In this document: in pieces, positions 8,904 to 40,385 of the stretch
How positions within the stretch are numbered: position 1 is the stretch's first letter
Layout of the letters: the number at the start of each line of letters is the position of its first letter
DNA from: an uncultured delta proteobacterium
Lineage (GTDB): Bacteria; Desulfobacterota; Binatia; Bin18
Length of the DNA: 46,686 nucleotides
NCBI GenBank assembly: GCA_963733195.1
Contig: CAVTCR010000061.1
Location: 1-46,686 of the forward strand
Reading direction: 5' to 3'
The notes under the pieces: generated by a model
What the model was told of the DNA's origin: nothing
Database searches by the model: none
Seen by the model: only the letters and a program-made list of their open reading frames with translations
Made by a program: the position numbers and the translations under genes

Positions 8904-8934
8904 AGGCGTAACAAATGATGGAACAATTGTTCAC
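8904..8934 (-). promoter_or_regulatory. Conserved 31-bp upstream element, copy 1
   Basis: AGGCGTAACAAATGATGGAACAATTGTTCAC, 160 bp upstream of ATG 8744. Confidence 0.85.
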
Positions 8935-9131
8935 TGCGGGGAGGGAGAACGAGATAGAGATGAGAGACAGAGATAGAGAAGGGAGACAGAGATAGAAAGG
9001 GGAGAGAGACAGCGAAGGAGAAGAGGTGTAGGCCGTAGGCTGAAGGGAAAAGGAGAAATGGCGAAATGGCGAAAAGGGGAAACGGCGAAAAGCGGAGTAG
9101 CGTGCGCTGTGCGAACGAGGATAACTAGTTT

Positions 9132-10289
9132 TCACACCGGTAGTTCGTGAAGAAACTCTAAGAGCGGTATGACCTCAACATCGTCTAGGCGTTGTCGACG
9201 GGGCCCCAGAAACACTACGATCAACCGCTTCACACGCTTCGTGCGCTGTGCGAAGGAGAATAACCCGCTGAGCGAGGCGCGCGACACCTGGCGTGCCGCT
9301 TTCACTTCGACTGCCCATAACTCGCGCCCAATCTCCAACACAAAATCAACTTCTGCTCCGTGTTTAGTGCGGTAATGATACACGGCAAGTTCCGGCCATA
9401 GAGTACCGATCCGTCGATGTAGCTCTTGTGCGAGCAAGTGTTCTAGCAAGAGCCCACGCTCGTCGTCTAAACAACGATCCAATGGGCGGCGCAACAGAGC
9501 GTTGCGTACACCCGAGTCAAAGAAAAAGAGCTTGGGATGAGCGATCAGACTGGCGCGGTCTGAGCCGCTCCACGCAGGCACGCGAAAGACCAGCAGCGTA
9601 TCTTCCAGGACTTCCACATACCGACGCGCGGTTTCATAACTCACCGCAGCATCACGACATAAGGCATTGAGGTTGAGAATAGTTCCAGAGGAGGCTGCCA
9701 TAACGTCGAGTAAACGTGCGTACCCGCCTAGGTCGCGAACCAGCGCTTCGGCTTGAATCTCTTCGCGTAAATACGCATCGACATATCCACGCAAGTCCTG
9801 CGCTCGGACGTCGGGATCCCGTTCAGCGTAAATGCCAGGCAACGTGCCGTGGGCGAAGGCACGGTTCACATCAAACTCTGCCCCTAACTCCTGTTCGAGC
9901 AGTGGGTGCAGATAGTGGAGATGGACACGGCCAGGCAAGAGATTGGCCTGCCCACGACGCAGCTTGCGCGCGCTGGAACCGGACAAGAGGAACCGGAACC
10001 GTTTGGGCTGTTCATCAACCAGGGTCTGCACGACATCCAACAAGGCAGGCACCCGTTGGACCTCATCGAGAGAGATGGTGCGAATGCTCTCTCCTACTGC
10101 GCGCAGTTCACTCTCCAGTCGTTCAGGATGCATCACATAATCGCGAAACGTGGTTGGGCTGGTAAAGTTGAGAACAAGGTCTGGCTTCAATGACGCAAGC
10201 AAGGTGGATTTGCCGACCTGCCGGGGCCCCAACAGCAGCAGGCTGCGGTGGCTGTCACTAATTTTGGGTAGTAGCGAACGTTTATACAT
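9132..10289 (-). CDS. AAA_14 ATPase with DUF4143 / PD-(D/E)xK-like C-terminus
   Basis: GPRQVGKST Walker A, LDEVQR Walker B, LSGSSA, HPKLFFFDSG, YRTKHGAEVDFV and AVEVK. Confidence 0.9.
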   Translation of the reverse strand: MYKRSLLPKISDSHRSLLLLGPRQVGKSTLLASLKPDLVLNFTSPTTFRDYVMHPERLESELRAVGESIRTISLDEVQRVPALLDVVQTLVDEQPKRFRFLLSGSSARKLRRGQANLLPGRVHLHYLHPLLEQELGAEFDVNRAFAHGTLPGIYAERDPDVRAQDLRGYVDAYLREEIQAEALVRDLGGYARLLDVMAASSGTILNLNALCRDAAVSYETARRYVEVLEDTLLVFRVPAWSGSDRASLIAHPKLFFFDSGVRNALLRRPLDRCLDDERGLLLEHLLAQELHRRIGTLWPELAVYHYRTKHGAEVDFVLEIGRELWAVEVKAARQVSRASLSGLFSFAQRTKRVKRLIVVFLGPRRQRLDDVEVIPLLEFLHELPV

Positions 10290-10353
10290 ATGGGTAATTT
10301 ACCCGGTATTTTACCCATATACAAGAACAAAGAAGAGGGTTCCTTGTAGAGGT

Positions 10354-10665
10354 TCATGTGGCCGTAGATGATTCGGCTGGAACAAAAGGCGGCTTATCCA
10401 GGCCCAAGCGCTTCACTCTGTCTTCTTCACGCGCACGCTCGGCTTGCAATAACTCTTGATTGTGTACGGCGTAATCGATAGCCTCACGCACAGCCTCAAC
10501 GGGAAGATCATAGTCCTGAGCGACTTCTTCCGGCGTACGAGACTCCGCACCAACAGTGCAACGATACAACACCTCGGCACGGATATGTCGTCCTTTGATC
10601 CAAAGCTGGTGGTACTGTGAGCTGGGACGACATTCAAGGTAGTGATAGTCAGCGTGTTTTGCCAT
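10354..10665 (-). CDS. DUF433-like (antitoxin-type HTH) protein
   Basis: QLWIKGRHIRAEVL...TPEEVAQDYDLPVEAVREAIDY matches the DUF433 pattern; start MAKHAD at 10665. Confidence 0.65.
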   Translation of the reverse strand: MAKHADYHYLECRPSSQYHQLWIKGRHIRAEVLYRCTVGAESRTPEEVAQDYDLPVEAVREAIDYAVHNQELLQAERAREEDRVKRLGLDKPPFVPAESSTAT

Positions 10666-10830
10666 AGGAGACCTACCGAAGGAATTACGATGTATTGCCC
10701 ACCATTGTGACATGAGGAGACAGCAGGAGCAACGGACAAACAACAAGCAGCCACTGAGCGTTTCGTAGCCTGAGGAGGGTAGTATCCCCTCCTCAACGAT
10801 TCTCTCGACGTTCGCATCGTTTCCTTAGCC

Positions 10831-11420
10831 TTAAAACAACGGTCCCATCACCTCGACCTTGACCTCGCCGTTGTTGATCGCCGGGGCCAGGATATTCATC
10901 AGTTCCATGCGTTGATTATTGGTCAGCTGCACCAAACGCGGCAGCGGAAGGTCTCCTTGTCCTCTTCGGTCCAGCGTTTGGCCGCCACGGCGGTCGTCAC
11001 CACACTCGATGCACTTTGATACGCCTCGCGATTCTCCGGCGTATTGAGTATTTGGGCTTCGGCGATTGCTTCTTCTTTCGCCCGCTGCGCCTCGGGACTC
11101 TCTTGCGCTACTGCGTTACGGACTTCTTCGCGGATGATTTGCGCGAGGTCTTGGCGTGAGATCTCAGAGTTCGCTGCTGCAGTTACGCGGGTTGGTTCAG
11201 GCCGTGCGTCATGCGTTTGCTTGACTTGCAGGGCTTGCGTCAACGCCATAACCGCTTGTTCGAGTTTTGCGAACCGTTGATCACTCTGAGCGTCAGTATG
11301 GGCTGGGGGCTCCGGCAGTGGCGGAAGTTGAGTCATCCAGGCAAAAACTCCTATACCCAGGATGAGGCCCATACTCACCGTTATAATCGTCCGCCAGATT
11401 CTTTTGTATTGCTGTGTCAT
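10831..11420 (-). CDS. Membrane-anchored GPLF protein, copy 2 (frameshift near 10935)
   Basis: ORF 10923-11420 has an N-terminal TM helix; the shifted frame ends ..EVMGPLF-TAA at 10831. Confidence 0.8.
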
Positions 11421-11521
11421 AATTTGTTCCCTTTCTTAAAAATGTGTGTGGAGTGTTTCTTTCACAACAGCAGCGGGAGCACTGTCACACCCCCGCCGCT
11501 ATGCTTTCGCCGAGTTAGTGC

Positions 11522-12937: not shown

Positions 12938-13351
12938 TTATTTGAGGTAGACGGAGCAATTGTAAATCGTGATGTTGCCGCACTTTCCGGGGCGCGATCC
13001 GCAGCTCGAAGAAAATGTACGAAGAGTCAGTCATTGCCTGGACTTTCTATGTCCTTCGGGTCATGACTCCCGCATTGAAGAATAGTTGTCTGTGCTATCG
13101 ACGGCAGTACAATACACGTAAGGTAACGGACAACGGGGCCGCGAAAGTCTATCTCGCAGCCGATGGATTGCTAGCTATCCGTACTGTAGCGCGCACCCAC
13201 CATGCTTCCAGTCGCGTAAAGGAATACCGTTGCGATTACCCACGTAGACCTCAGGGGTACTCACTTCGCCCGCCCACGTCGGAATAGCGTTGGTGAACAA
13301 GCCCAGACACAGAGCCGTCAGACCGAGAATTTTCTTCAGATTTGTTTTCAT
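12938..13351 (-). CDS. Small secreted Cys-containing protein A1 (alpha subtype), frameshifted
   Basis: MKTNLKKILGL..PTWAGEVSTPEV; ARYSTDS; AMTDSSYIFF; ends SVYLK-stop. Confidence 0.7.
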
Positions 13352-13428
13352 GTTGTTATTCTCCTTTCTGAAATAGAACGTTGTTTCCTCTGCGCCTTTG
13401 CCATTCGTTGATTTATTGCGTGGATCAT
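13348..13428 (-). CDS. Putative 26-aa leader peptide translationally coupled to A1
   Basis: AAAGGAGAA RBS, then MIHAINQRMAKAQRKQRSISERRITT-TGA, with the stop overlapping the A1 ATG (ATGA); homologous 5-prime sequence near 40221-40303. Confidence 0.4.
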   Translation of the reverse strand: MIHAINQRMAKAQRKQRSISERRITT

Positions 13429-13478
13429 GTTGATGTTCTCCTTTCGCTGTCGCAATGCACATGTGTTCTGTTAAAGAG

Positions 13479-13564
13479 AGGCGTAACAAATGGTGGAACA
13501 ATTGTTCACGGTAAAAAGCGAGGCAAAAGGCGCAACCGAGCAGGAGAGGACGGAACAATTGTTC
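13479..13564 (-). promoter_or_regulatory. Conserved 31-bp element, copy 2 (13479-13509), plus distal palindrome (13553-13564)
   Basis: AGGCGTAACAAATGGTGGAACAATTGTTCAC, with a second GAACAATTGTTC 57 bp away. Confidence 0.85.
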
Positions 13565-13645: not shown

Positions 13646-14451
13646 TCAGTTGTAGCCCAGATGAAATCCGGGCTCGTTGTTCCGAGCTGCTGATGTTGGG
13701 GAATAACGGAGGGCCACAACGGTACTGTCGTCTCGTCCACCCCGGGCATGGGCTAACTCCACCAACACGTCACAGGCTTGCTGTAGGTTGGTTCCTGCCT
13801 TCCACACGATGGCGTGGATCTCCTCGTCGACGAGGTCGCGATACACACCATCACTACAAATGAGAAACAGGTCCTCAGCCTGTGGAGCTTCAATCCGCAC
13901 GGCTCGGGATGAACTTCGGGTCCTACTCCGATCGCTTGGGTCAGAACGTGCCGATAACGGCTCGTCCGCCATTCTTGTGGACTCATCAGTCCGGCGCGGA
14001 CGAACTGCTGGGCGACCGTGTGATCTTCGGTCAATTGCTCCAGGACAGCCTCGCGCAAGCGATACACCCGCGTGTTGCCGACATGGCAGATCACGGCGCT
14101 TTCCTGGGATGAGTCGAAGGCCACAGCCGCAACGGTGGTCCCCATGCCCAGTAACTCTAACTGGCGATGACTCACCTCCAGCACCTGCGTATGTGCACGA
14201 TATACGGCATTAAGCAGGGGCTGACTGGGCGGCAACGGCGTAGGGCTGGGTGTCTGGACCTGCACGTCTGTGTCCAGCAGTGTGTGTCGTATCGTCTCGA
14301 CGGCGAGGGTGCTGGCGAGAGTGCCCCCCCGCTGTCCTCCCATGCCATCGGCAACGACATAGGTCTGCAGATCAGGAAAGAGGCCGAAGGCATCTTCATT
14401 ACGTGGCCGCACTTTGCCACAATCGGTACGAACTGCAGTGGTGATAGACAT
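13646..14451 (-). CDS. PP2C/PPM-family Ser/Thr phosphatase-like protein, copy 1 (frameshift near 13905)
   Basis: TDCGKVR..NEDA, VADGMGG, GMGTT, LTEDHT, LTQAIG, LICSDG and GGRDDSTVV; the usual GDSR motif reads GNTR. Confidence 0.85.
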
Positions 14452-14462
14452 AATCAGTTTCC

Positions 14463-14708
14463 TTAGGTGAGGCGATAGCGTGTAGGTGTAGCGAGTGGAT
14501 CGCTATCCCCTGTTCGCCATGGCGCCAGAGTGAGTGTTTCTGTCGTCGAAGCATCGGATAGGTTCTGACCCATCCGACGAGGCTCCTGCCGTGTGGCTGC
14601 CGCAATCGCTTCCCGTACGCCGAAGTGCCCGCTCGCGCAGAGCGCAAGAATGACGTCGGTAAGTGAGGGGTCAGTCAGCGAAACGAGTGATTCTGCCTGT
14701 GTATGCAT
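14463..14708 (-). CDS. Hypothetical 81-aa protein, copy 1
   Basis: RBS AGGAGA; conserved in the duplicate at 22055-22301; stop lies 12 bp from the PP2C start. Confidence 0.5.
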   Translation of the reverse strand: MHTQAESLVSLTDPSLTDVILALCASGHFGVREAIAAATRQEPRRMGQNLSDASTTETLTLAPWRTGDSDPLATPTRYRLT

Positions 14709-14770: not shown

Positions 14771-14974
14771 TTACAACACCCTATAGTTTTGCAGGGCGTG
14801 ATAACAAACGTAGGAGAGGAACGTGGCCATACCGAAGGTTACGGCGATGAAAGCCCTCTCATAGAGGGTTTCTTTGTTGACGCGATACGTCAGGCGTTCT
14901 TGCGTTGAAGACTCGATACGGGGAAACGCGTCTGCGGGTTGTACTGTTACAATGTTCGTGGTGTTCATGCTCAT
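14771..14974 (-). CDS. Small membrane protein (67 aa, C-terminal TM helix), copy 1
   Basis: RBS AAGGA; hydrophobic AFIAVTFGMATFLSYVCY; duplicated at 22364-22567. Confidence 0.6.
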   Translation of the reverse strand: MSMNTTNIVTVQPADAFPRIESSTQERLTYRVNKETLYERAFIAVTFGMATFLSYVCYHALQNYRVL

Positions 14975-15036: not shown

Positions 15037-15116
15037 AGGCGTAACAAATGAGGGAACAATTGTTCACTGCAAGGCGAGGAAAAGGGAGCTGGAAGGAAAG
15101 GAAGGAACAGTTGTTC
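15037..15116 (-). promoter_or_regulatory. Conserved 31-bp element, copy 3 (15037-15067), plus distal GAACAGTTGTTC (15105-15116)
   Basis: AGGCGTAACAAATGAGGGAACAATTGTTCAC, 63 bp upstream of ATG 14974. Confidence 0.85.
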
Positions 15117-15503: not shown

Positions 15504-17961
15504 TCAGTGTCCACTGTTACTCGTTGGCACGGTAACAGTAGCTGTCACGTCACGAGTGTTGCCAGAGGTGTCAGTCGCGCGGTACGTGATGGTATACACC
15601 CGACCGCGTGCTTTGACCACCCGTGCTCGCGCTCGGAACGTAACGAGAAGGTGCGATCATCGGTACCAAGAGCTGCACCTTCAATATCTGGCCCTTTGTC
15701 TCCATTTCCAAGAAACCCGTTGCCGGTTCATTACTGGTATCGAGACCAGTGTGACGGTCGGATGCGGATCACAATTGTCGGTCACGGTGATCGTCGCCGT
15801 CACATTTTGGAATTTATGATTTGGTGGCCACAGAGTCGTTGGCGATAACGTCACGGTGAGGGTGGGCGGAGCAACGTCAAGGACCTCCAGTGGTGCTGAA
15901 CCGGAAGCCGCCAGTTCATTGCTCACCATATCCTTGAAGGCCACCGAAGCACTCACGCTAGTAAAATCGCCCGGACAGGCGTTCAGGGGCACGGTGAAGT
16001 TGCTCGTGCGCGTCACGAGCCCGCCGACCACGACGGCATTGAGATCTTCTCACCTGCGTTACTCCGTCTGGTCGCGTATCGGTGAGGACCGCTTGCAGTG
16101 CCGGGCCACGCCCTTGATTACGGATCTGCGTGGTGTCAGGTGAACATGGTCACCAGGCTTAGCGGTCGTTGGGCCGGTTTTATCAACAACGACCCCGGGG
16201 GCGGCCATTGTCGCCATAAATTCCCGCGACCTGTCTGATGGTCTCTGGGTCAGCTTCTCTTCAACTGGAACACTCCCGGCGCTGCCGGCACTCTGCGATA
16301 GTCTACGAGGCTATAGATGCAGATTGGGCCAGTCATTAAAGCCCTAGCAGAATCTCATCACTTACTACCGTTGCCATCGCGATGTCAGCTCGGATATTGT
16401 TTATTGTTCGGAGCCGGACACGTCGCGCCTTCGAGCACGATTATCATCAATCCACTGCCGCGAGCCGAAACCAAGTTGTCCGGCGTCAATGCCAATACAT
16501 TCATCCAGGCTCGCGTTCATCCAGAAACTTTGAGGCTAAGGGAGGTAAGACAATGCGTGAGTAGTCACAGCCTCCGGGCAGGAATCCATTCGGACTCGGC
16601 GTGGATACGACATTCTTGAAACGCATAGTTCATCACACTGAGGTAGTTTGGCTTGCCATTCGGCAGGTCGCTGTCACCGCCGTGGTCGAGACCCAAGCGT
16701 ATGCCCGAGCTTCATGCATAAAAGTGCCGGCTTGCTCCGCGCGATTACCAACCGAGAAACCATTGGCATCGGTGATCCCAACAGGGAAAAGTTGGCGTAA
16801 GATCTACCCCCGAGGGTCACGATAAACTCGTTGCCAGGGATCGTAGTTCGCCTCGCCGCTGGTGCAGTCATCCGTGGCCTGCCGATAGTTCGTCTGATGA
16901 CCAAAGATCGCATAGCGGAAGAGCAAGTCTCGGCGGCTGTCGAAGAAGGCCTCCCGCAGGTCAGCAAACTTTGTCCCGTTTCCTTTTGGACTACTGAATG
17001 ATTCAATAATCTCGTTGCCAGCTTCGGCAATCTGGGTTCCCCCACCACCGAAGTTGCCGTACTGTCCCAGTGACACCGCCTGTCCCAGGAACAGAGATGA
17101 TCCCTGCTCCGAACAGCGGACCAGTATCGACATGGAGTTGAACACCCAGTGGTCCCGTCAAGATTAGCGACTGGTGCGTTGGCAAACGACTCGCACGGCG
17201 TCGGCGATGGCATCTGTTCGTGGGCAGTGAGAATGGGTCATGGCGACTAAACAATCGACCTCGACGAACACATCCTTGCGCCGCGGATTCGCCCCGAACG
17301 CCGGCAGGTTCACATCGATGGTCCCATCGCCGTCGGCATTAAAGCCGTTCTGCTCCCAGCTATCGAGCAAGCCGTCTTCATCCGCATCCCCACTCGCGGA
17401 TAACCACACTGATGTTCAAAGCAGACCCTCACGTCACGCTCATCATGCCCCTCCACACAATTTTGCGGCCAGTTGATGTCCCCACTCCAGCGCCCGGTCG
17501 TCAAATTCACGTCGAGCCCTAACGTGTAATTCCCGGCGAGAGGATTAATGTCGCCTTGGTCGTCGTCGTCATCGAGGATGTTGTCGTCGCTATCCCAGAT
17601 TTGAATCAGCACCGGGACGCTGCCATCGGAACTGGACACCTCCTGGGTCATCACCCACGCAGGATCAGGAAACAAGGGGCCAAAAGGAGTGATAAACCCC
17701 GTCCCAATCCCACCAGGAAAATTAAAGTGGTCCGCGAAGGTGTCATGCCTCGCCCCGTTGATAATGGCAACTGCATACAAGTCTCCAGGGGATGGGAAGG
17801 CGCCCCGTCCATGTCGCCCTCAAGATCCCACACTTCTGTGATAGTGACGGTGACCGGCTGGGTCTGCGCATGACTGACAGTTGGCAACAATAGCGTTACG
17901 GCAGTACACACTAACAAGCAGAGCAGATAGAACACAACTGAAAACTGTGAAATGTGAACAT
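15504..17961 (-). CDS. Large secreted multidomain metzincin-type zinc protease, copy 1 (many frameshifts)
   Basis: Signal peptide ..PTVSHA; IQIWDSDD C2-like domain; DADEDGLLDSWE Ca-binding motif; FMHELGHTLGLDHGG after indel correction near 16690-16712; DUF11-like domain; LWPPNHKF..RVYTITYRATD Ig-like tail; paralog of 18450-20888. Confidence 0.7.
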
Positions 17962-18094
17962 GATGAGTTCTCCTTTCTCTTCAGATTGTATTTTGTGAAC
18001 GGTTGATAGTGATTTGTTCTCCGATTCCCTGTTCTCATTTCGCTTTGTCTCGCCTCCTTTCTTTGCCGCAGTGCACTGTGTGTTCTGCTAAGGA

Positions 18095-18187
18095 AGGCGT
18101 AACAAATGGTGGAACAATTGTTCACTGCACGGATGCAAGCCAGCAGTGGCACCCTGCTGCGGGCAGGAAAGGAAGGAACAATTGTTC
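18095..18187 (-). promoter_or_regulatory. Conserved 31-bp element, copy 4 (18095-18125), plus distal palindrome (18176-18187)
   Basis: Exact consensus; second GAACAATTGTTC 64 bp away. Confidence 0.85.
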
Positions 18188-18420: not shown

Positions 18421-18449
18421 GTTGGGTGCCGCACTGGCGCGGGCGTGAT

Positions 18450-20888: not shown

Positions 20889-21020
20889 GTGAGTTCTCCT
20901 TTCCCTTCCGAACGTATTTTGTGAGCGGTTGATGGTGATTTGTTCTCCGATTCCCTGGTCTCATTTCCTTTATCTCGCCTCCCCTTCTTTGCCGCAGTGC
21001 ACTGTATGTTCTGCTAAGGA

Positions 21021-21113
21021 AGGCGTAACAAATGGTGGAACAATTGTTCACTGCACGGATGCAAGCCAGCAGTGGCACCCTGCTGCGGGCAGGAAAGGAA
21101 GGAACAATTGTTC
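21021..21113 (-). promoter_or_regulatory. Conserved 31-bp element, copy 5 (21021-21051), plus distal palindrome (21102-21113)
   Basis: Exact consensus, 133 bp upstream of ATG 20888. Confidence 0.85.
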
Positions 21114-21276: not shown

Positions 21277-22046
21277 TCAGCCCTCTGAGGCGGGGGAATA
21301 ACGGAGGGCCACAACGGTACTGTCATCTCGCCCACCCCGGGCATGGGCTAACTCCACCAACACGTCACAGGCTTGCTGTAGGTTGGTTCCTGCCTTCCAC
21401 ACGATGGCGCGGATCTCCTCGTCTACGAGGTCGCGATACACACCATCACTACAAATGAGAAACAGGTCCCCAGCCTGTGGAGCTTCAATCCGCACGGTGG
21501 GATGAACTCGGGCCCTACGCCGATCGCTTGGGTCAGAACGTGCCGATAACGGCTCGTCCGCCATTCATGTGGACTCATCAGCCCGGCGCGAACGAGCTGC
21601 TGGGCGACCGTGTGATCTTCGGTCAATTGCTCCAGGACAGCCTCGCGCAAGCGATACACCCGCGTGTTGCCGACATGACAGATCACGGCGCTTTCCTGGG
21701 ATGAGTCGAAGGCCACAGCCGCTACGGTGGTGCTCATGCCCAGTAACTCCAACTGACGGTGACTCACCTCCAACACCTGTGTATGTGCACGATATACGGC
21801 ATGGAGCAGGGGCTGACTGGGCTGCAACGGCGTACGGCTGGGTGTCTGTACCTGCACGTCTGTGTCCAGCAGTGCGTGTCGTATCGTCTCGACGGCGAGG
21901 GTGCTGGCGATGGTGCCCCCCTGCTGTCCTCCCATGCCATCGGCAACGACATAGGTCTGCAGATCAGGAAAGAGGCCGAAGGCATCTTCATTCCGTGACC
22001 GCACTTTGCCACAATCGGTACGAACTGCAGTAGTGATAGACATCAT
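21277..22046 (-). CDS. PP2C/PPM-family phosphatase-like protein, copy 2 (frameshift near 21507)
   Basis: Same motifs as copy 1, including the GNTR variant; ORFs 21423-22046 plus 21277-21564. Confidence 0.85.
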
Positions 22047-22631: not shown

Positions 22632-22662
22632 AGGCGTAACAAATGGTGGAACAATTGTTCAC
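22632..22662 (-). promoter_or_regulatory. Conserved 31-bp element, copy 6
   Basis: Exact consensus, 65 bp upstream of ATG 22567. Confidence 0.85.
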
Positions 22663-26137: not shown

Positions 26138-26165
26138 AATCATTCTCCTTGTGTATAACTCAGAG

Positions 26166-27732: not shown

Positions 27733-27763
27733 AGGCGTAACAAATGGTGGAACAATTGTTCAC
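27733..27763 (-). promoter_or_regulatory. Conserved 31-bp element, copy 7
   Basis: Exact consensus, 56 bp upstream of ATG 27677, directly abutting the stop codon at 27764-27766. Confidence 0.85.
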
Positions 27764-27968: not shown

Positions 27969-28748
27969 CTATGCAGCAGTTTTGTGCATCACTTCTTGAG
28001 CAGCCTGCTGGGGCATCGTCTTCTTGGCGAAGAACCGGGGGACAAGCATTGGTACTTGTCGACGGTACTCCGCATACGCCGCATGCGCCGCGAGCAAATC
28101 CCGTTCTTCGAGCTGAATGGCGATCAGGATGTAGGCGGTAGTCAGCAACGCAAACACCAGATGTGCCACCGTCATCGTCGGCGTCGCCCAGAAAGCGAAG
28201 AACCAGCCAACGTACAGCGGGTGCCGCACGAGTTTGTAAGGGCCAGGAGTTCCGAACTTCAGGGGCGTGTACTCTTTCCCGCGCAGATAGAGATACACCT
28301 GCCGCAAACCGAAGAGATCAAAGTGGTTAATCAGGAACGTCGAGACCAACACGAGCAGCCAACCAAAAGCAAACAACCCATACAGCAGCAGGCGCCCCGT
28401 TGAATTCTCGATATTCCAGATCGTGCCGCCCATTGGTTGCCACTGCCAGAACAGCAACAGTAAGGCGAGGCTGGAGAATAGAACATAGGTGCTACGCTCA
28501 ACCTGGGGGGGGACAAATGCGGTCCACCAGCGCTTGAAGGCTGGCCGCGCCATGATGCTATGTTGCAGCGCAAACAGGCCCAGTAACCCAACGTTGACCA
28601 GCAGGGCCTGACCAAAGGTCATCTCTGGGATTGAATCCATGGCCTTTGGGACGAGAAAATTACCAACGAAACCAATGGCATAGAGGAACGTACCGAAGAA
28701 AATCAGATAACATGTCACACCATAGATAAAAGCAATAATTCTTCGCAT
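27969..28748 (-). CDS. mddA: Methanethiol S-methyltransferase (MddA)-like / isoprenylcysteine methyltransferase family membrane protein
   Basis: MRRIIAFIYG start after AAAGGAG; LFALQHSIMARPAFKRWWT, ERSTYVL, INHFDLFGLRQV, YKLVRHPLYVG, FWATPTMT and EERDL. Confidence 0.8.
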   Translation of the reverse strand: MRRIIAFIYGVTCYLIFFGTFLYAIGFVGNFLVPKAMDSIPEMTFGQALLVNVGLLGLFALQHSIMARPAFKRWWTAFVPPQVERSTYVLFSSLALLLLFWQWQPMGGTIWNIENSTGRLLLYGLFAFGWLLVLVSTFLINHFDLFGLRQVYLYLRGKEYTPLKFGTPGPYKLVRHPLYVGWFFAFWATPTMTVAHLVFALLTTAYILIAIQLEERDLLAAHAAYAEYRRQVPMLVPRFFAKKTMPQQAAQEVMHKTAA

Positions 28749-28876
28749 GACGGATACTCCTTTTTGAATTAGTGGGGTTGTTTTTCGTCGTGTTTGTCTT
28801 TGCCTCATCAGTTCACATGCTGTGCATAACTGCGCCCTCCTCTTCCGCTTGCTTGAATGCTGTTCTCTGTGGAGAA

Positions 28877-28958
28877 AGGCGTAACAAATGGTGGAACAAT
28901 TGTTCACTGCAACAAGCGAACAAAGGGCAGGGAACAGGAAAGGACGGAACAATTGTTC
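28877..28958 (-). promoter_or_regulatory. Conserved 31-bp element, copy 8 (28877-28907), plus distal palindrome (28947-28958)
   Basis: Exact consensus; second GAACAATTGTTC 53 bp away. Confidence 0.85.
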
Positions 28959-30517: not shown

Positions 30518-33500
30518 ATGACCTTTGAGGAGACCCTAGCGCAAGTGCGGGAGTTACTCGCGCGGGAAGGGCGGGTGGCCTATCGCCTCCTAAAGCGACG
30601 GTTCGCATTGGACGACGAGGATCTGGAAGATCTCAAGGCCGACCTGATTGATGCTAAACAGGTGGCGATCGATGAGGGAGGGAAAGTCCTGGTGTGGGTT
30701 GGCGGCGCTGCGCCATCGACCGCGCTTCAGACCCCGGACTCAGGACTTCACACTCGGGACGCTCTTCAGCCGGAAGCCGAGCGGCGGCAACTCACCGTGA
30801 TGTTCTGTGACTTAGTAGATTCCACGGCTCTCTCCGCCCAACTCGACCCCGAAGAATACCGGGAGCTTGTGCACAACTACCAGCACACGAGCGCCACCGT
30901 CATTGAACGCTTTGGGGGGTACATTGCGCAGTATCTCGGTGACGGATTGTTGGTGTACTTTGGCTATCCGGCGGCGCATGAAGATGATGCCCAACAGGCC
31001 GTGCGGACAGGATTGGAGATTCTGAAGGGCTTCCAGTCTCTCAATGCACAGCTGCCGCCCATCATGCGAGCCCGCTTATTTCACCCTCTCCAAGTCCGCA
31101 TCGGCATTCATACTGGTCTCGTAGTCGTGGGGAAGGTTGGTGGAGCAAAAGGAGAACTCCTTGCGGTGGGCCAGACACCGAACATTGCCGCACGCATTCA
31201 GGGGCACGCCGCGCCCGATACGGTGGCCATCAGCGAGGCAACACATCGCTTGGTCGAGGGCTTGTTTGAGTGTGAGGACTCCGGACGCACAGAACTCAAA
31301 GGGATATCAACTCCGCTGACGCTCTATCGTGTGGTCAAAGAAAGTGAAGCCCAGAGTCGCTTTGAGGTGGCGGTGCACAAAGGATTGACGCCGCTGGTGG
31401 GCCGAGTAGAGGAATTCGCACTGTTGCAGCGGCATTGGGAGCACGCCAAAATGGGTGCAGGCCAGGTCGTGCTAGTGAGTGGTGAGCCGGGGATTGGGAA
31501 ATCCCGGCTAGTGCAGGAGTTCAAAGGGCAGCTTGCGCGCGAGGGCGCGACCTGCATAGAGTTTCGCTGCTCCTCCTATCACCAGAACAGCGCGCTGTAT
31601 CCCATCATCGAACACTTACAACGGCTCCTTCAGTTTGCGCGGGAAGATGCTCCCGCGACAAAGCTGGAGAAACTCCAACACACGCTGAGCCACTATCGCT
31701 TCCTCCAGATCGATACCGTCCCCCTCTTAGCTGCCCTGTTGTCACTTCCCCATCCCGAAGGTTATCCACCCATTACGGACAGTCCGCAGAAGCAAAAGGA
31801 GAAGACGCAGGCCGCCTTAGTGGCGTGGCTGGTCGAGGAAGCGGAGAGGGCTGCCGTGTACTGTGGCTGGAAAGATCTCCACTGGGCCGATCCCTCGACG
31901 TTAGAGGTGCTCACGCTCTTGCTTGACCAAGTGCCCACGACGCGGCTGTTGGCGTTGCTGACCTTTCGCCCCGAGTTCACCCCACCCTGGGGGAATCGGT
32001 CGCACCTCAGCCAGATGACGCTGAGCCGCTTAGGCCGACCGCACATCGAGACCATGATCAAGAACGTGACGCATCGCAAGGCGCTGCCGGCTGAAGTCGT
32101 GCAGCACATCGTGGCCATGACGGACGGCGTGCCGTTGTTTGTCGAAGAATTGACCAAGACTGTGGTGGAGTCGGGGCTGTTACGAGAAGAGGGGGACCGG
32201 TATGTCGGGGCGCACGGCGGTGCGCCCATCCTGCTGTTGGCGATTCCCTCCACATTACAGGACTCGCTGATGGCACGCTTGGATCGCTTGGCCCCCGTCA
32301 AAGAGCTGGCGCAGCTCGGGGCCACCCTGGGGCGGGAATTCTCGTACGAATTGCTCCACGCGGTCTCCTCCTTAGACGAGGGCAGCTTACAGCAGGGACT
32401 GCGGCAATTAGTCGAGGTCGAACTGCTCTATCAGCGCGGCTTGCCGCCGCACGCGACGTATTTCTTCAAGCACGCGCTGATTCAGGACACCGCCTACCAG
32501 TCGTTGCTCAAGAGCAAACGCCAGCAGTATCACCACCAGATCGCCCGGGTGTTGGAGGAGCAGTTTCCAGAGACAAAGGAGACGCAGCCCGAGCTAGTCG
32601 CCCATCACTACACCGAAGCGGGTCTTGTCGAACAAGCCATTCCCTATTGGCAGCGGGCAGGACAGAGAGCCCTTCAGCGCTCAGCCTTTGCAGAGGCCCT
32701 TGGTCACCTAACCAAAGGCTTAGAGGTACTCACAACTCTCCCTAATACCCCGGAACGCACCCAGCAAGAGCTGATCCTGCAGACGGCCTTGGGAGCCACG
32801 CTCATGGCCCTCAAAGGCTATGCGTCCCCAGAGGTGAATAAAGCTTACACCCGAGCGCGCCAGTTGTGCCAGCAGGAAGGAGGAAGCCCTCAACTGTTCC
32901 CGGCCCTGCGGGGACTGTGGGTATTTTATTTGCTGCGGGCGGAATTGCAGACGACGCACGAACTGGGGGAGCAGCTCCTCAGCTCTGGCCCAGAGCGCGC
33001 AAGATCCCGCGCTGCTCTTGGAGGCCCATTATACGCTTGGAGACGAGCTTGTTCTTCCTCGGTGAGCCGGCCCGAGCCCGCCCCCATCTCGAGCAGTGCA
33101 TTACGCTCTATGATCTCCAACAGCACGGCTCCCATGCCTTTCTGTACGGACAAGACCCCGGGGTGTTTGCCCATATCGTTGCGGCTTTGGCCCTGTGGGT
33201 ACTTGGCTATGCAGACCAGGCTTTGGAAAGAATCCACAGCAGCTTCCCTCCTCGCCCAGGAAGTGTCTCATCAGTTCAGCTTAGCGGGCGCCTTGGTCTT
33301 TGTGGCCTGGATTCATCACTTCCGCCGAGAGGGGCACGAAACCCAAGAGCAGGCACAGGCGGCGATTACGCTCTCTGATGAGCAGGGGTTTCCGTTCTGG
33401 ATGGCGTGGGGAACTATCCTACGGGGCTGGGCGTTGGCCGAGGAAGAAGAGGGGATTGCCCAAATGCGCCAAGGACTGTCCGGCTTGCAGGCTACAGGGG

Positions 33501-33974
33501 CAGAGCTGGTACGGCCGTATATTCTTGCCAAGTTAGCCGAGGCATATGGAGCAGGAGGGCAACCAGAGGAAGGGCTAACCTTGTTAGCCGAGGCCCTACC
33601 GGTAGCGTACAAAACTGGGGAGCGTTGGAGCGAGGCAGAGGTGTACCGGCTGAGAGGGGAGCTCACGCTGCAAAAGTTTCAAGTATCAAATTCCACGGTG
33701 CAAGCGCTCGACCCCCAGCAGGTAACCCCCAGCCCCCACGCTGAGGCAGAGGCGTGTTTTCAGAAGGCCATGGACATTGCGCGACAGCAACAAGCGAAGT
33801 CGTGGGAGTTGCGCGCCTCAACAAGCCTTGCCCGTCTGTGGCAGCAGCAAGGCAAGCAGAGAGAGGCACACCAGATGTTGGCGGAGACTCTACGGCTGGT
33901 TCACCGAGGGGTTTGACACGAAAGACTTGCAAGAGGCCAAGGCGCTGCTCGACAGTCTAGCGTCCAGCATCTAG
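30518..33974 (+). CDS. Class III adenylate/guanylate cyclase - AAA ATPase - TPR (STAND-type) protein; frameshifts near 32985, 33240 and 33890
   Basis: ERRQLTVMFCDLVDST, YLGDG, RIGIHTG, NIAARIQ; GEPGIGKS; FKHALIQD; KSWELRASTSLARLW; WFTEGFDTKDL. Confidence 0.9.
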
Positions 33975-34026: not shown

Positions 34027-37000
34027 CTAACCCTGCCAGGTGATCGGCATGCGGACATCAGGGGTGTACGAACAGTACGTGCCCGTTTTGATGGTGGTGG
34101 CCAGATGCTGGCCCAAGGCCGCATGATGTTCACTGATCTTGCGCAGGGCGATCTTGATGGCGCGGGTAATGTTCACCCGTGCGCGTTCCGCTGGCGAGCC
34201 TACTCGCCGCGCCCGCCCGCCAAGCCCGACTGCACTAGCCAGTTCGTGGGTGAGAAAGTCGATCTCGCGGCCAGCCGCTCGCTCCGGCCCAGGTCATGAA
34301 ATTGCTGCGCCTCGGCCAGTTCCTCTCGCAACTCGGTCAGACGCTGCTTGTAGGCCGCTCGCGCCTGGGGATCAAGGATTTCCCCGGCATCACTGAACCC
34401 TTCGGTGTGGTCAACTGGCAGGCTAGGGTCTTCAAGGAGAGGAGCTTCACCGGAGCCTTCCCATTGAGATCCGCAGCTTACAGTGATCAGGGTGAGGACA
34501 TGGAACTTCTTGGTGCGGATGTTGCAGCAGATGGGCAATGTAGTGGAGACCGCGGGCATCTTTGAGTCGACAGGTCGCGCCGGCAAAGCTTACCGTCCAG
34601 TAGTCGCCTTCATGATGGAAGGCATTAGGGATTGGCACGTCTGGAGTCTGAGGTCCAACGTTCGATGCCGGAAGACCTGGTACGTCTAGAGTCGCGCGTC
34701 CAGGAGTGAGGGGTGAGGTGTGTGAAGAAAGGGGAGCGGGGGTCAGAGGTCGGGGCGCGGTAATTTTTGACTTTTGATCTTTGACTTCGGATCTTTGACT
34801 TTCCTTTTCCGCTTTTGCGTTGCCGCCCACCTCACGCAGCAATGCCGCCGCCTCTTGCAAATCCTTCGTGTCAAAGCCTTCGGTAAACCAACCGTAGATG
34901 TCTTCAAGCAAGGTACGAGCTTCTCTGAGCCTCCCTTGGTTCTGCCACAAACGCGCCAGACTTGTCGCCGCGCGCAGTTCCCATGACTTGGCTCCCTGCT
35001 CTCGCGCAATGGCAATGGCTTTCTGGAAGCACTCCTGTGGAAAGGAAGGAGTAATTTTTTCTTCTTCTCCCATTCGGAGCGAGAGCTCTCCTTTCAGGCG
35101 ATATAATTCCGCTTCGTAGAATCGTTCGCCGTTGCGCGCAGATACGACAAGCGCTTCGTCGATCGCTCGTAGACCTTCCTGGATTTGCCCCGTCTCCCCA
35201 TACGCACTTACCAGCAAAGCCAAGAATTGCGACTGCCATATGCCAGTGCCAGTCGCCCGAAGAGCCGCCAAGCCAGCTTGAGTTTGCGCAAGTCCTTGTT
35301 CTTTTTTTCCTTGCGCAATCAGCGCCCACCCCAGCACAGCCGGACTGTACGCCGCCCACAGGGCGAACTGTTGTTCCGTGGAAAGAACAATCGCTTCCTC
35401 CGCAGCCTTTTGCGCCGCTATTGGTTCACCCCGGAATTGATGGACCATGGCATTGCCACTCAAGGCCCAAGCGAGGGTTTGCCCATGCGATAGATCCTTG
35501 CTTAATACGAGCGCTTCCTGACTCAACTGCAAAGCTCGGTCTGGATACCCCAGCAACCAGTAGAGAAATCCCGCATGAATCCGGCAGCACGCTCCAGGGT
35601 CGTGGCCGCCGTACACAAAGGTCTGTGGATAATGCCGGTCAGGTTGGTAGAGACGCAGTCCTTGCTCTATATGGAACTGGCATGTCGCTAAATCTCCGCG
35701 AGCGACCAACGTTGTCCATAGAGCATGATGCGCCTGGAAAGAAAGATCCGAGTCTCCAATGTGTCCCGCAAACTGGAAGAGCTGACTCCCCAACTCTTCC
35801 GCGGCACTTAGATCCCCCGCCACTGCATGAGAAATCCATAATCCCCACAAGACTGCAAAAAGATCAGGCGGATCGTCGAGTTCTCGGCATAACGAACGCG
35901 CCTGTTGATAGTGGCGTCTTACCTCTGGAGCCCCATACCCTCTCAGAGCCAGCATGGGAGTACCGAGGGCCAGGCGAAGCGTCAATTCCTGGCGAGTCCG
36001 CTCCAAAGAGGCAGGGAAACGAGCAAGCAACGTCAAGGCGTGGGTGAGGTGACGAAACGCCTCGGCATTCGCCGAGCGTTGCACGGCAGTACGGCCAGCG
36101 CGTTCCGAGTAGGAAATGGCACGGTGTATCTCTCGTCCCTTTTCAAAGTGCACAGCGAGTTCTGTAGCAATCTCGCCCACCCGCTCGCCATAGGCCGCCT
36201 CTTTACGCTCGGCAATGCGACGATGTAATTGCACCCGACGCACCTCAGCCGACTGCGCATACACCACCTCGTGATACAGCGCATGCCGAAAACTGTAGCG
36301 GCCGCTGATCGTCCCATCCGGCCATTCTGCCACTCCCGCCGCCCGCAACCACTGCCCTGTGCGTGCCAGCTGCTCACACTGTGACTCGATCTCCTCACTG
36401 TCCGTTTGCAATCCTGCAGTGACTTCCGCTGCGGCAAACTCCACCCCCACCACGCCGGCAACCTCTAGCAGCCGCCGTTCTGATTCGGGTAATCGCTCCA
36501 GCTGCCGCTCGATCAACTGCCGCAAACTATCTGGTATGCCTTCGCCGACAGTTTCGACTGTGTCGGCTCGGAGTCTCCACTGTCCCTCATCTTCGACAAG
36601 CGCACCTTGCCGGACAAGATCGTCCACCGTGGTGACGATAAATAACGGATTCCCACCCGTGCGACGGTGGAGCACAGGTGTCAACTCGTGTAGAGACGTC
36701 CGGCAACTCGTCCCTCCGGCAAATCGTTCGGTCAGATACTCCCCAATCGCCTCTTCGGCTAACGGTGTGAGCCGTAGCTCTTCACATTGCTGATGCGCTA
36801 GCAGCTCTTGCACGATCCCACGCAAGGGATGAGTGCCAGCCAGTATATCTGCCGGGCGATAGGTACCCAGAATGAGCAGCTTGGCCGGCTCGCGGCGTCG
36901 CGCCATGTAGGTTACCCAATCCAACGTCGACACATCACTCCAATGCAGATCCTCCAGCACCACCACCAACCCCCGCTGCGTGGTAAACCCTTCCGCCGCC

Positions 37001-37473
37001 TCGGCCATCTCGCGTAGCATCCGCTCTCGACTTACCCCCTGCACATGTTGCTGCAGTCGATCAAATGTTTGAGGCTCTAGAAGGCCCGGCAATTGCGCCA
37101 GCCAACTCGGCGCATAGCGTTGCAGTGCCTCGATACGCCGCTCACCACCCGGGGCGCGGCAGAGGCGTGTGGTCGCTTCCAGCAGCGGCAGATAAGCTTC
37201 CCCCGGACCGTACTGCTCCACGCACTGCCCAGAGGTAATCCGGATATCGGTTCGCGCCTGCAACTGCGCCAAAAAGGCATCGACCAGCGCCGTCTTCCCA
37301 ATGCCAGGTTCGCCGGCCAAAAACACGACTTGCCGTTGGCCCTGCAACGCGGCCCCCAGTCGCTGATGGAGCGCGGCGAGTTCCACTTCGCGTCCGACCA
37401 GCGGCACGGCCAAGCGCTCACTGGCGGGCGTCGTGACCTGCTGGGGGAGGTGAAGAATCTTTCCACTCATCAC
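34027..37473 (-). CDS. STAND-type AAA ATPase - TPR protein with C-terminal putative DNA-binding domain; frameshifts near 34500 and 34265
   Basis: VGRE, GEPGIGKT, LEDLHW, TGGNPLF, FRHALY, WELRAATSLARLW; C-terminus EGDYWTVSF..RGLHYIAHLL..ERARVNITRAIK..IKTGTYCSYTP..WQG-stop. Confidence 0.85.
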
Positions 37474-37623: not shown

Positions 37624-38208
37624 TCAGAATAACGGCCCGTTCACTTCGACCTTGACCTCGCCGTTATTGATCGCCGGGGCCAGGATATTCATCAGTTCCA
37701 TGCGTTGATTATTGGTCAGTAGCCCAAACGCAGAGCGGAAGGTTTCCTTGTCCTCTTCAGTCCAGCGTTTGGCCGCCACGGCGGCCTGCACCACGTTTGA
37801 CGCGCTTTGATACGCTGCACGATTCTCCGGTGAATTGAGAATTTGGGCTTCGGCAATGGCTTCTTCTCTCGCGCGCTGGGCCTCCGGACTCGCTTCAGCC
37901 ACGGCTTGGCGGACTTCGTCACGGATGAGCTGGGCGAGCGCCTGGCGTGAGACCTCAGGGTTCGCTGGCGTGGCCACTCGCGTGGGCTCAGGCCGTACGC
38001 CTTCCGTCTGGTTGACCTGCAGCGCTTGAGGTCAACGCCGTCACGGCTTGCTCCAGTTTCCCTAACCGTTGGTCATGCTGGGAGTCGGTGTGGGCGTGGG
38101 TGTCCGGCAGCGGCGGGGGTGGGGTGCCAGACCACCGCGCCGACGCCCACGAGGATGCCATACTAAGATAAATCGACTCCATAATCCTTTGTTCTGCGCT
38201 GTCATCAT
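37624..38208 (-). CDS. Membrane-anchored GPLF protein, copy 3 (frameshifted)
   Basis: MMTAQNKGL.. start; DQRLGKLEQAVTALT; ORF 37624-37977 ends INNGEVKVEVNGPLF. Confidence 0.75.
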
Positions 38209-38807: not shown

Positions 38808-38887
38808 GATGTCGTTTTCCTTTCTGTCAGGGTAAAGAATGCCGTTGACGGTTAAAGTCACTCAAGTGACTAAACGGTTGTCCTTCC

Positions 38888-39301
38888 TTATTTGAGCAGG
38901 TCGGAGCTATTGTCAATCGTGATGTCTTTGCACTCGCCCACGTTGCCGGTGCTACCTGTAGAGAAGTAATGTACGAAGAGTCAGTCATTGCCCGGACCAT
39001 TTCTAGGAACTTCCAATCACCACTCCCACAGATAAGAGACCTGCCTGCACTGTTCGTGGCAAGACGTGGTCCACGAATACGAACTGAGAGTGAGGCTCTA
39101 CACCCGATCTGTTGCCTGGTTGTCCGCACTGTCGCGCGCGTCTACCAGGTTTCCGCTTGCCGTACTCCAAAATTGGTTGTCTCTATGATGACAGTATTGG
39201 TACTACTTACTCACTCTGCCTGCCCACGTCGGAACAGTCGTGGCCAGCAGGGTCATGCCCAGCGCCGCCAGACCGAGGATATTCTTCAGATTTGCTTTCA
39301 T
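38888..39301 (-). CDS. Small secreted Cys-containing protein B3 (alpha subtype), frameshifted
   Basis: MKANLKNILGLAALGM; ARDSADN.QQIGC; SLICGS; RAMTDSSYI; ends LLK-stop. Confidence 0.7.
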
Positions 39302-39361
39302 GATGTCATTCTCCTTTCTCAAAGGTTAACATTGTCTGCATCTACGCCGTTGCGTCGTTGC

Positions 39362-39768
39362 TTATCTGAGGGTTTTCAGAACTGTTCTCGACAGTCAGGT
39401 TGCTCTGCAGGAACGACCGTCCGGGGCCACGTTGAATTGGATGTACGAGAAGTCGGTGATCGCCTTGGCCGCTGCCGCAAACTGCGACTCGGAGCTAGAA
39501 CAGAAAAAGGATTTGCCGTTCTTGTCCGTCGCTGAACACACAACGGACGGACCGTACGTATTTGAAAAGTGACAGCCGATGTATTGTATGCTGTCCGTAC
39601 TATAGCGCGCCCCTGCCATGCTCCCCAAAGCCCAAATACGGGATGTGTTATTGAAACCTCAGGGAGGCCAAATGACCCTGCCCACGCCGGGAGGCTATGC
39701 GAGACCAGGGCCAACCCAAGAACTGCCGTACCGATTAGGTTGTGTAACTTGTGTAACTTCGCTTTCAT
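39362..39768 (-). CDS. Small secreted Cys-containing protein B2 (beta subtype), frameshifted
   Basis: MKAKLHKLHNLIG..PAWAG..PEV; GSMAGARYSTDSIQYIGC..VCSATDKNGKSFFC..KAITDFSYIQF..SC. Confidence 0.75.
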
Positions 39769-39813
39769 GATGTCGTTTTCCTTTCTGAGAGGTTAAAGTT
39801 GCTCCCGCCACGC

Positions 39814-40224
39814 TTATTTGAGGTGGTAGGAGTAATTGAAAATCCTGAGGCTGTCGCAGTTTGCGTTGGCGCGATTCCCCACGAAGGAAATGTACGAAGA
39901 GTCAGTCATTCCTTCGAGCTCTTGTACGTGCTTCGGGTCAAAACTAAGACAGAAAGCATGATTGCCCGCGCTGTCACGGGCATCACATCGGATGGACGGA
40001 GACTGAAAATCAGAATTAGCGCTTATGGAACACACGATGAATTGCGTGCTGTCCGCACTGTAGCGCGCGCCGACCATGCTTCCGCTTGCCCAACTGTAAA
40101 CCTGGTTGCCTCCTATGGCGACCTCAGGGGTACTCACACAGCCTGCCCACGTCGGAACGGTGTTGGCCAACAGCGTCATGCCCAGCGCCGCCAGACCGAG
40201 GATGTTCTTCAGATTCGCTTTCAT
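39814..40224 (-). CDS. Small secreted Cys-containing protein B1 (alpha subtype), intact 136 aa
   Basis: Signal peptide to PTWA-G; GSMVGARYSADSTQFIVC, RCDARDSAG, FC, MTDSSYISF, NC and YHLK. Confidence 0.85.
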   Translation of the reverse strand: MKANLKNILGLAALGMTLLANTVPTWAGCVSTPEVAIGGNQVYSWASGSMVGARYSADSTQFIVCSISANSDFQSPSIRCDARDSAGNHAFCLSFDPKHVQELEGMTDSSYISFVGNRANANCDSLRIFNYSYHLK

Positions 40225-40354
40225 AATGTCATTCTCCTTTCTGAAAGGTTAAAGGTTATTCCATCTACGCCTTTGCCATGTCGCCGATTTATGCGTGGAT
40301 CATGTTTTGATTCTCCTTTCGCTGTCGCGGTGCATCAGTTTGTTCTGTGTAGAA

Positions 40355-40385
40355 AGGCGTAACAAATGACGGAACAATTGTTCAC
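40355..40385 (-). promoter_or_regulatory. Conserved 31-bp element, copy 9
   Basis: AGGCGTAACAAATGACGGAACAATTGTTCAC, 131 bp upstream of ATG 40224. Confidence 0.85.

Follow-up and report, generated by a model that had tools for sequence, protein, structure and literature searches.

The repeated element and its genomic setting

Binatia are abundant, uncultured soil bacteria, and full-text literature searches, with subscription-only papers outside their coverage, returned no experimentally defined promoter or regulon for them. The stretch of DNA analysed here, referred to as the window, is the whole of one contig (C61; 46,686 nucleotides) of a 6.95-Mb, 87-contig Binatia assembly. It carries nine copies of a 31-bp element, each upstream of a minus-strand gene, together with two genes for STAND proteins that are considered below as candidate regulators. 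The pattern AGGCGTAACAAATGNNGGAACAATTGTTCAC matched nine times in the window with 0 mismatches and with 29 of 31 positions fixed, as an earlier note made from the sequence alone had reported, and it had 0 matches in 100 dinucleotide shuffles of the window. All nine elements lie on the plus strand as written, the sense strand being the minus strand, and one orientation is kept throughout. An assembly-wide scan allowing up to 4 mismatches found no copies besides the nine in C61, which is not the behaviour of a repetitive extragenic palindromic (REP) sequence. The co-regulated set proposed in the earlier note is retained, but it is confined to this one 46.7-kb contig and is not genome-wide.

Each element contains a perfect 12-bp palindrome, GAACAATTGTTC, and the direct repeat TTGTTCC/TTGTTAC with a 12-bp period, both of which had been described before. 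The palindrome occurs 13 times in the assembly and every one of these is in C61, nine within elements and four as extra perfect copies 53-64 bp upstream (in the sense direction) of a main copy; a degenerate palindrome lies 51 bp upstream of the element at 15037. When aligned on the sense strand, the elements read GCA-GTGAACAATTGTTCC-NN-CATTTGTTACGCCT, with an invariant TGTYACGCCT downstream of the palindrome, and are followed by a less conserved stretch of about 45 nt (TTCTTAGCAGAACA..GTGCACTGCGACAGCGAAAGGAGG). The distance from the last base of the element to the first start codon preceded by a Shine-Dalgarno (SD) sequence is 55-159 nt across the nine copies, in agreement with the constant orientation upstream of minus-strand genes noted earlier. 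The features are given below, each element with the genes that it is predicted to drive.

8904..8934, minus strand, element copy 1: putative palindromic operator plus TGTTACGCCT; start 159 nt on; gene 8412-8744
13479..13509, minus strand, element copy 2: start 127 nt on; small secreted protein 13175-13351 and downstream paralogues
15037..15067, minus strand, element copy 3: start 62 nt on; 67-aa protein 14771-14974 and PP2C 13753-14451
18095..18125, minus strand, element copy 4: fragmented paralogue (16674-17780) of the 362-aa secreted protein; 133 nt to the start of a short, truncated paralogue open reading frame (ORF)
21021..21051, minus strand, element copy 5: start 132 nt on; 362-aa secreted protein 19800-20888, also DUF11 protein 18763-19563
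22632..22662, minus strand, element copy 6: start 64 nt on; 67-aa protein 22364-22567 and PP2C 21423-22046
27733..27763, minus strand, element copy 7: start 55 nt on; beta/gamma-crystallin protein 26166-27677, phospholipase C (PLC)-family phosphoesterase 23992-26143, and 23085-23981
28877..28907, minus strand, element copy 8: start 128 nt on; mddA (27969-28748)
40355..40385, minus strand, element copy 9: start 130 nt on; small secreted protein 39814-40224
13553..13564, no strand assigned, auxiliary perfect palindrome: 57 bp upstream (sense) of copy 2
15105..15116, no strand assigned, auxiliary degenerate palindrome, sense GAACAACTGTTC: 51 bp upstream of copy 3
18176..18187, no strand assigned, auxiliary perfect palindrome: 64 bp upstream of copy 4
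21102..21113, no strand assigned, auxiliary perfect palindrome: 64 bp upstream of copy 5
28947..28958, no strand assigned, auxiliary perfect palindrome: 53 bp upstream of copy 8

The element is shared with relatives of this bacterium; close homologues carry the NCBI name 'Candidatus Binatia bacterium'. With up to 3 mismatches allowed, 8 of the 24 genomes sampled from the same family had the element, as against none of 16 from other families of the class. A family-wide scan at up to 2 mismatches placed it in 10 of 55 genomes including this one (9 of the 54 others) and in five of ten genera, the reversed pattern giving 0 in the same genome set; a common variant in the relatives is TTGTCACGCCT. 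Its retention across genomes of the family implies a selected cis element and not a private duplication. The perfect identity of the nine copies may, however, come partly from recent duplication of promoter-gene modules, because three of the downstream gene families exist as paralogous pairs or triplets.

Several features surround the elements. A 10-bp perfect palindrome, CAGTGCACTG, lies within GCAG..CTGC about 12-25 nt after each element (for example, at 8870-8890, 18060-18080 and 20986-21006); it is kept across genera and may be either a second operator or a hairpin at the 5' end of the mRNA. The leader of the copy at 15037 has a different hairpin with a 7-bp stem (GGGTGAG..CTCACCC; fold z -3.3). 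Mini-ORFs of 2-7 codons (MIHA*, MIHQ*, MI*, MHSM*, MHNL*), set behind a strong SD of their own (GAAAGGAGG or GGAAGAGGAGG), precede the real SD and start in the leaders at 40250-40335, 13385-13478 and 28790-28876 (sense strand) and at the related loci L009, L016, L025 and L021. Orthologous promoters keep the mini-ORF start, a hint of translational control. Many elements have degenerate, pyrimidine-rich heptamer arrays (CTCTATC, TCTGTCT, TTCCCCG) immediately upstream, as at 8935-9010 and 40386-40460 of the window and at the elements in L009, L011 and L025.

Candidate regulators encoded beside the element

Gene maps of the window and 18 related loci revealed a recurring neighbour of the element, a STAND protein of about 1,040-1,230 aa with AAA_16 and TPR domains and often an N-terminal double zinc ribbon. 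The matches to AAA_16 have E values of 1e-22 to 1e-28, and those to the repeats are to TPR_12 and TPR_MalT. At eight sites in seven genomes, including 40712-44580 of the window, the STAND gene shares its strand with an element and has its stop 117-475 bp upstream of it. A likely regulator, which the earlier note had missed, is encoded within the window itself, where two candidates are found.

40712..44580, minus strand, candidate regulator A: double zinc ribbon 44242-44580, AAA_16 STAND ATPase 43208-44125, TPR, and predicted C-terminal split winged helix 40715-41320
34030..37473, minus strand, candidate regulator B: AAA_16, TPR, and the same C-terminal domain as A

Regulator A is read in several frames with at least two frame breaks, and element copy 9 sits 330 bp downstream of its stop. 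Over its last 79 aa, regulator B shares 92% identity with A; its frame is broken twice within the C-terminal domain, and no element lies directly downstream. Among the relatives, the element and an orthologue of the STAND regulator (at least 75% identity) co-occur in six genomes and are both lacking in 31, and the order of regulator, element, mddA and then PLC is kept in two other genera (L009, L016).

PADLOC defence models gave no match for two regulators and only a weak TPR match (E 4e-4) for a third. An identity as an anti-phage STAND system (Avs and similar) finds no support in these matches.

The regulators near elements share a C-terminal domain of about 200 aa that ends in ...ERARVNITRAIKxALRKI..HHPxLGQHLATTIKTGxYCSYTPD. 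There are 13 loci bearing this domain in the genome and about 1,680 homologues of it in the databases, where its further fusion partners are STAND proteins of the cyclase, kinase and Trans_reg_C kinds and, in a single case, a sigma-54 AAA+ activator. Such fusion to varied signalling proteins implies that it behaves as an output domain. One protein of 670 aa (P0033), with a receiver and a sigma-54 AAA+ activator, ends in this domain (63% identity) where a Fis-type helix-turn-helix (HTH) is expected; a chimeric contig is possible in this case.

Predicted fold of the C-terminal domain

Pfam and NCBIfam models gave nothing meaningful on the C-terminal domain, which is instead modelled as an OmpR/PhoB-type winged helix split by an insertion of about 90 aa. 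Two AlphaFold2 (AF2) models reached a predicted local distance difference test (pLDDT) score of 73.7 and 82.1, the second using 49 natural sequences. In this second model, three beta-strands come first, then a helix (31-41), a short strand and another helix (49-67); a helical hairpin (89-135) lies past a disordered acidic stretch, and the domain closes with a long helix (148-170) that bears ERARVNVTRAIK, a shorter one and a beta-hairpin. This agrees with the OmpR/PhoB fold, in which an N-terminal beta-sheet precedes three helices, one of them for recognition, and the wing is a C-terminal beta-hairpin. About 90 residues, namely the acidic stretch and the helices 89-111 and 115-135, are thereby inserted between helix 2 and the recognition helix, so that the domain is not a contiguous unit of about 100 aa, unlike the standard of the Trans_reg_C family.

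Among the 50 structural matches listed by VIA-align, 13 are OmpR/PhoB DNA-binding domains and the rest are two-helix hairpins on the insertion; no non-hairpin fold other than OmpR/PhoB is among these 50. The matches include BaeR (Z 8.1-8.2 over 96 aa), CssR (Z 7.9, 86/88 aa) and GlnR (Z 7.9, 89/95 aa), and also CpxR, ArlR, ToxR, KdpE, VicR, VanR, AdeR and CadC. The OmpR/PhoB alignments take residues 6-57 and 148 to about 194 and skip the insertion, and both models agree on this. Profile comparison by hhalign of the N-terminal half with 24 Trans_reg_C domains of the same genome gave an E value of 0.0014 (reversed control 0.13). In a paralogue that joins a receiver (REC) to the C-terminal domain, NCBIfam models of OmpR-family response regulators extend to about position 178 of 229 in the profile, that is, into the first half of the domain.

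Other searches added little to this picture. A PDB sequence search with a single sequence returned nothing, a PDB profile search returned only low-scoring armadillo-repeat and coiled-coil noise, and a search of the ESM Atlas returned only unnamed clusters. Literature searches on STAND NTPases, winged helix-turn-helix (wHTH) domains and TPR and on Binatia promoters, likewise with subscription-only papers outside coverage, found no description of the regulator family.

Paralogous regulators and their putative operators

Several paralogues of the regulators are directly followed by another palindrome and then, at the same distance, by the same GTYACGCCT. Among these putative operators are TGAACAATTTGTTCA-N-GTTACGCCT and GAACAATTCGTTC-N-GTTACGCCT, and three loci that are nearly identical to one another have CGAGTCACACTGTGACTCG-N-GTCACGCCT. 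A palindrome with arms of at least 6 bp, centred 16-18.5 nt upstream, accompanies 21 of the 181 GTYACGCCY sites of the genome, and six controls for this pairing gave 0-2 of 169-333. In the relatives, an exact GTYACGCCY was present within about 690 bp past the stop of 13 of 40 paralogue genes, where about 0.4 would be expected from its genome frequency.

The examination of 60 loci yielded 24 pairs of regulator and operator, in which the half-site follows a single residue of the recognition helix (position 9 in ERARVNVT[R/K]AIK). Arginine occurs with GAACA half-sites in 12 of 12 pairs and lysine with (G/T)(T/G)CACA in 10 of 10, while the two remaining pairs have leucine with AAACA and methionine with GTGACA. 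Each of the arginine and lysine classes spans several operator spacings and lineages.

Promoter-like sites of the form TGAAC..GTTCA + GTTACGCCT were also seen at G000:C71:8706 (with C71:9227-9397) and G000:C25:29477 (with C25:28203-28370) of this genome. Neither of the two sites has a gene for the C-terminal domain, and divergently oriented genes whose N-terminal Trans_reg_C is canonical lie 0.5-1 kb away. Trans_reg_C is matched 41 times in the genome, in many cases in STAND ORFs of about 1,000 aa, and the promoter class may also serve such canonical Trans_reg_C STAND genes.

Proposed mechanism and alternative explanations

The 31-bp element is probably an activator-dependent promoter with a built-in operator for a STAND protein encoded in the same cluster. 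The analysis itself shows the repeat and its exclusivity to C61, a regulator gene in synteny with it, the fold of the C-terminal domain, palindromes that are specific to each paralogue, and the covariation of residue and half-site. Binding as such, activation as opposed to repression, and the placement of the -10 and of the transcription start site (TSS) are steps that we infer. The composite operator/promoter of unrelated genes put forward in the earlier note is supported, with nine copies in one orientation, always upstream of genes.

The palindrome GTGAACAATTGTTC(C) would be bound by two C-terminal domains of regulator A and possibly also of B, and head-to-head binding is implied by an operator that is an inverted repeat. 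The invariant TGTYACGCCT, 8-9 bp downstream of the palindrome, would provide a weak -10 (YACGCC), in which only T/C-12 and A-11 are kept. YACGCCT stays constant while the palindrome varies, which points to the palindrome as the specificity site of the regulator and to YACGCCT as a shared core-promoter element. The centre of the palindrome is 17.5 nt from the A of YACGCC and would thus lie at about -28.5 if this A is -11; the regulator is proposed to occupy the place of sigma region 4 there. Since there is no -35, RNA polymerase would need the bound regulator. The predicted transcription start falls at the conserved T-A-G of ..CTTAGCAGAACA.. in the leader, about 7 nt past YACGCC. In front of a PP2C gene at a related promoter (C45:37509), the SD starts 11 nt past ACGCCT, which puts the TSS within about 10 nt of ACGCCT. 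The extra upstream palindromes may allow cooperative binding by an oligomerising STAND protein and, speculatively, the inserted hairpin could give a dimer contact or a polymerase contact.

Several observations weigh against this proposal. Both regulators of the window have frame breaks, one of them at an A5 run, and A and B may therefore be pseudogenes here. As for the fold, Z scores of 7-8 are middling by VIA-align's own calibration; Foldseek against the PDB gave no match at E <= 0.001, its weak rows being ferritins and a few OmpR-type domains; Pfam Trans_reg_C (PF00486) had no match to the domain at E <= 10; and hhalign of the C-terminal half placed the recognition helix in register but with an E value of 0.2 (control 0.69). 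OmpR-type domains usually bind direct and not inverted repeats. The 24 pairs include orthologues and near-identical repeats and thus represent fewer independent events, roughly 5-6 per class, and 36 of the 60 loci for the C-terminal domain are without such a promoter within 700 bp. Among the relatives, G002 and G022 carry elements without a regulator orthologue of at least 75% identity, and G010 has the regulator orthologue with a variant site only.

The same protein could bind the same site as a repressor, covering the -35 and spacer of a self-sufficient promoter and being released on a signal. A box that lies over the core promoter region would suit this, repressors typically have palindromic operators, and the auxiliary sites 51-64 bp upstream could support looping. 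Unaided activity is, however, unlikely for a promoter with no recognisable -35 and a match of only two bases to the -10. MalT, a STAND regulator with an HTH output, is an activator, and AfsR, the studied STAND regulator with a wHTH output, is an activator too. OmpR/SARP-type boxes at this position activate (PMC10936776). Repression is accordingly judged unlikely, though it deserves to be kept in mind.

The reading of the element as a promoter for an extracytoplasmic function (ECF) sigma factor, GAAC-N16-GTTAC, with the sigma factor encoded elsewhere, has in its favour the ECF-like spacing of GAAC and GTT, a resemblance pointed out in the earlier note, and about a dozen ECF-like sigma genes do occur elsewhere in the genome. 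ECF promoters are marked by a non-palindromic AAC -35 and a CGT -10, and the cognate sigma gene is usually linked or autoregulated. No sigma-70 region 2 or 4 domain (Sigma70_r2, r4_2) and no sigma gene was found on C61, and no further copy of the motif stands in front of any sigma gene. The supposed -35 is a perfect palindrome of which extra copies occur without the '-10', and paralogous promoters exchange GAAC for GTCAC, GGCAC or AAACA but retain YACGCCT. The type of palindrome follows the residue in the recognition helix of the winged helix, and an ECF promoter is therefore very unlikely.

A structured RNA leader, or a mobile, REP-like or recombination repeat, might account for the conserved stretch of about 45 nt after the element, and the pyrimidine-rich CGCCTYTCT can pair with the SD-like GAAAGGAGG. 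Against this, Rfam 15 gave 0 matches at gathering scores over the whole window, which also answers the concern of the earlier note about a noncoding RNA. The fold z-scores of the nine copies range from -3.3 to +0.7 with two of nine below -2, conservation is highest on the DNA palindrome, and there are only nine copies, in a single orientation and always upstream of genes, which makes these explanations highly improbable. A LexA/SOS box of the Cheo-box type, whose consensus GAAC-N4-GTTC is fitted exactly by GAACAATTGTTC, can be dismissed with near certainty, because the lexA of this genome (G000:C75, 11441) carries CTGT-N8-ACAG (TACTGTATTTATCTACAGTA) 44 bp upstream, GAAC-N4-GTTC was not found upstream of lexA1, lexA2 or recA, and this motif is unenriched genome-wide (123 found against about 106 expected), the exception being the 13 AATT copies in C61.

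Two standard promoter types were rejected on alignment by eye. The GG-N10-GC spacing of a sigma-54 promoter does not fit, and no -10-like hexamer of a housekeeping -35/-10 promoter lies at a fixed distance downstream of TTGTYA. Separately, the CTGT-N8-ACAG box at lexA defines the LexA box type of this Binatia genome.

With the activator-dependent promoter as the preferred explanation, a wider proposal can be offered, though tentatively, as we find it somewhat harder to believe than to doubt. STAND, REC, kinase, cyclase and possibly sigma-54-AAA proteins may form a large, unrecognised family of switches, with a hairpin-split OmpR-type output in which the insertion falls in the transactivation loop, and the element would mark the best-preserved regulon among them. 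This family would follow a palindrome code (Arg-GAACA, Lys-CACA), would act by AfsR-like sigma adaptation at -35-less YACGCCT promoters, and would have at least 13 members in this genome.

Genes downstream of the element and the rest of the window

The genes downstream of the elements are unrelated to one another, as had been claimed, but they make up about five families and not at least six. There are three MKANLK small secreted proteins, two units of a 67-aa membrane protein followed by a PP2C phosphatase, two copies of the 362-aa secreted family (one of them decayed), and, after the element at 27733, an operon for a beta/gamma-crystallin protein and a phosphoesterase. The remaining family is MddA, which passes the NCBIfam equivalog cut-off (363 bits vs 270). 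The phospholipase-C/acid-phosphatase-family enzyme scores below the family cut-offs and its gene is split in two frames. The earlier product labels for MddA, PP2C and the phospholipase-C family are thus upheld, but no protease domain was found among the products of the downstream genes, and 23085-23981, which had been labelled as a fibre protein, has no family match. In relatives, the element also precedes genes for DUF3455, a DUF7948/beta-propeller protein, a PASTA protein and methyltransferases.

Frame-shift splits affect the PLC-family gene (23992-26143), the PP2C C-termini (13753-14647), the decayed paralogue (16674-17780) and both regulators (34030-34635; 40712-44580). Logan contigs from four soil or rhizosphere RNA libraries, 90-99% alike, overlap parts of 26.1-28.75 kb, and one of 941 nt crosses the element at 27733; such contigs are blind to transcript starts, strand and level, and may reflect DNA carry-over.

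Three paralogues of a membrane-anchored protein without annotation (...NNQRMELMNILAPAINNGEVKVEV.GPLF) are encoded at 5986-6423, 10923-11420 and 37624-37977 of the window, and relatives of this protein stand behind the element in L020, L021, L023 and G010. An ISL3-family transposase gene and a DUF4143/AAA_14 ATPase gene (6894-7745, 9132-10289) are found between the metabolic genes of the left end and the first element, and the cluster could be an island that has undergone rearrangement. The regulators are flanked by two class III cyclase/AAA_16/TPR genes (30518-33916 and 45015-46686). The first matches Pycsar-type (PycC-like) cyclase models in PADLOC (E 2e-18), probably through similarity of the cyclase domain only.

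Implications

The locus yields a sequence-defined promoter class, a candidate regulator family without a Pfam DNA-binding model, and a rule that relates a residue to a base. It would extend the AfsR/SARP principle, in which a STAND sensor sets a winged helix on the -35 region, beyond Actinobacteria and in a rearranged architecture. A dedicated signalling switch would, moreover, control mddA along with secreted proteins and an enzyme of the phospholipase-C family; mddA, described as abundant in soils, serves to convert methanethiol to dimethylsulfide. If the wider proposal is true, Binatia and their neighbours would have in these split-winged-helix switches a major layer of transcription control that had so far gone unseen.

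Comparison with known systems

In MalT and the LAL regulators, a STAND ATPase with a helical-repeat sensor activates dedicated promoters via several sites. Their DNA-binding domain is a C-terminal LuxR/GerE HTH, whereas no GerE/LuxR match was found in the regulators or in the C-terminal domain at E <= 10. PhoB/OmpR response regulators (Trans_reg_C) would share the DNA-binding fold as modelled, and one paralogue combines REC with the C-terminal domain. The pho-box of PhoB takes the place of the -35 beside a -10, as the box would here. Unlike PhoB/OmpR, the present domain has no Pfam match, carries an insertion in the loop between helices 2 and 3, has a palindromic target and belongs to a family made up mostly of STAND proteins and not of response regulators.

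HP1043 (HsrA) of Helicobacter pylori, an OmpR-family wHTH protein, is a structural match to the C-terminal domain (2hqn, Z 6.8, first model), and head-to-head binding to its target has been proposed (PMC8345958). It is, however, a small orphan response regulator with no STAND or TPR part and no insertion.

Close parallels are drawn with AfsR and the large SARPs of Streptomyces, for which PMC10936776 describes a box centred at -29.5 with its 3' repeat 8 bp from a suboptimal -10, and a SARP dimer that contacts sigma region 4 ('sigma adaptation') at promoters without a usable -35. Both systems couple an OmpR-type winged helix (predicted here) to a STAND ATPase and a TPR sensor, and both have a box over the -35/spacer, which here would be centred at about -28.5 and 8-9 bp from a weak -10, given the TSS inferred for the element. 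The differences lie in the inverted domain order, with the DNA-binding domain C-terminal and no BTAD or Trans_reg_C match in the element-adjacent regulators, where SARPs begin with a wHTH and continue with a BTAD; in a wHTH that is split, on the models, by about 90 aa; and in an AAA_16 ATPase with an N-terminal double zinc ribbon. Likewise, the operator is an inverted repeat, where AfsR/SARP operators are direct repeats of a heptamer that recur every 11 bp; an invariant YACGCCT forms the -10-like motif, and the phylum differs (Binatia). The system would extend the theme of STAND transcription activators with an undescribed architecture of the DNA-binding domain and a readable recognition rule.

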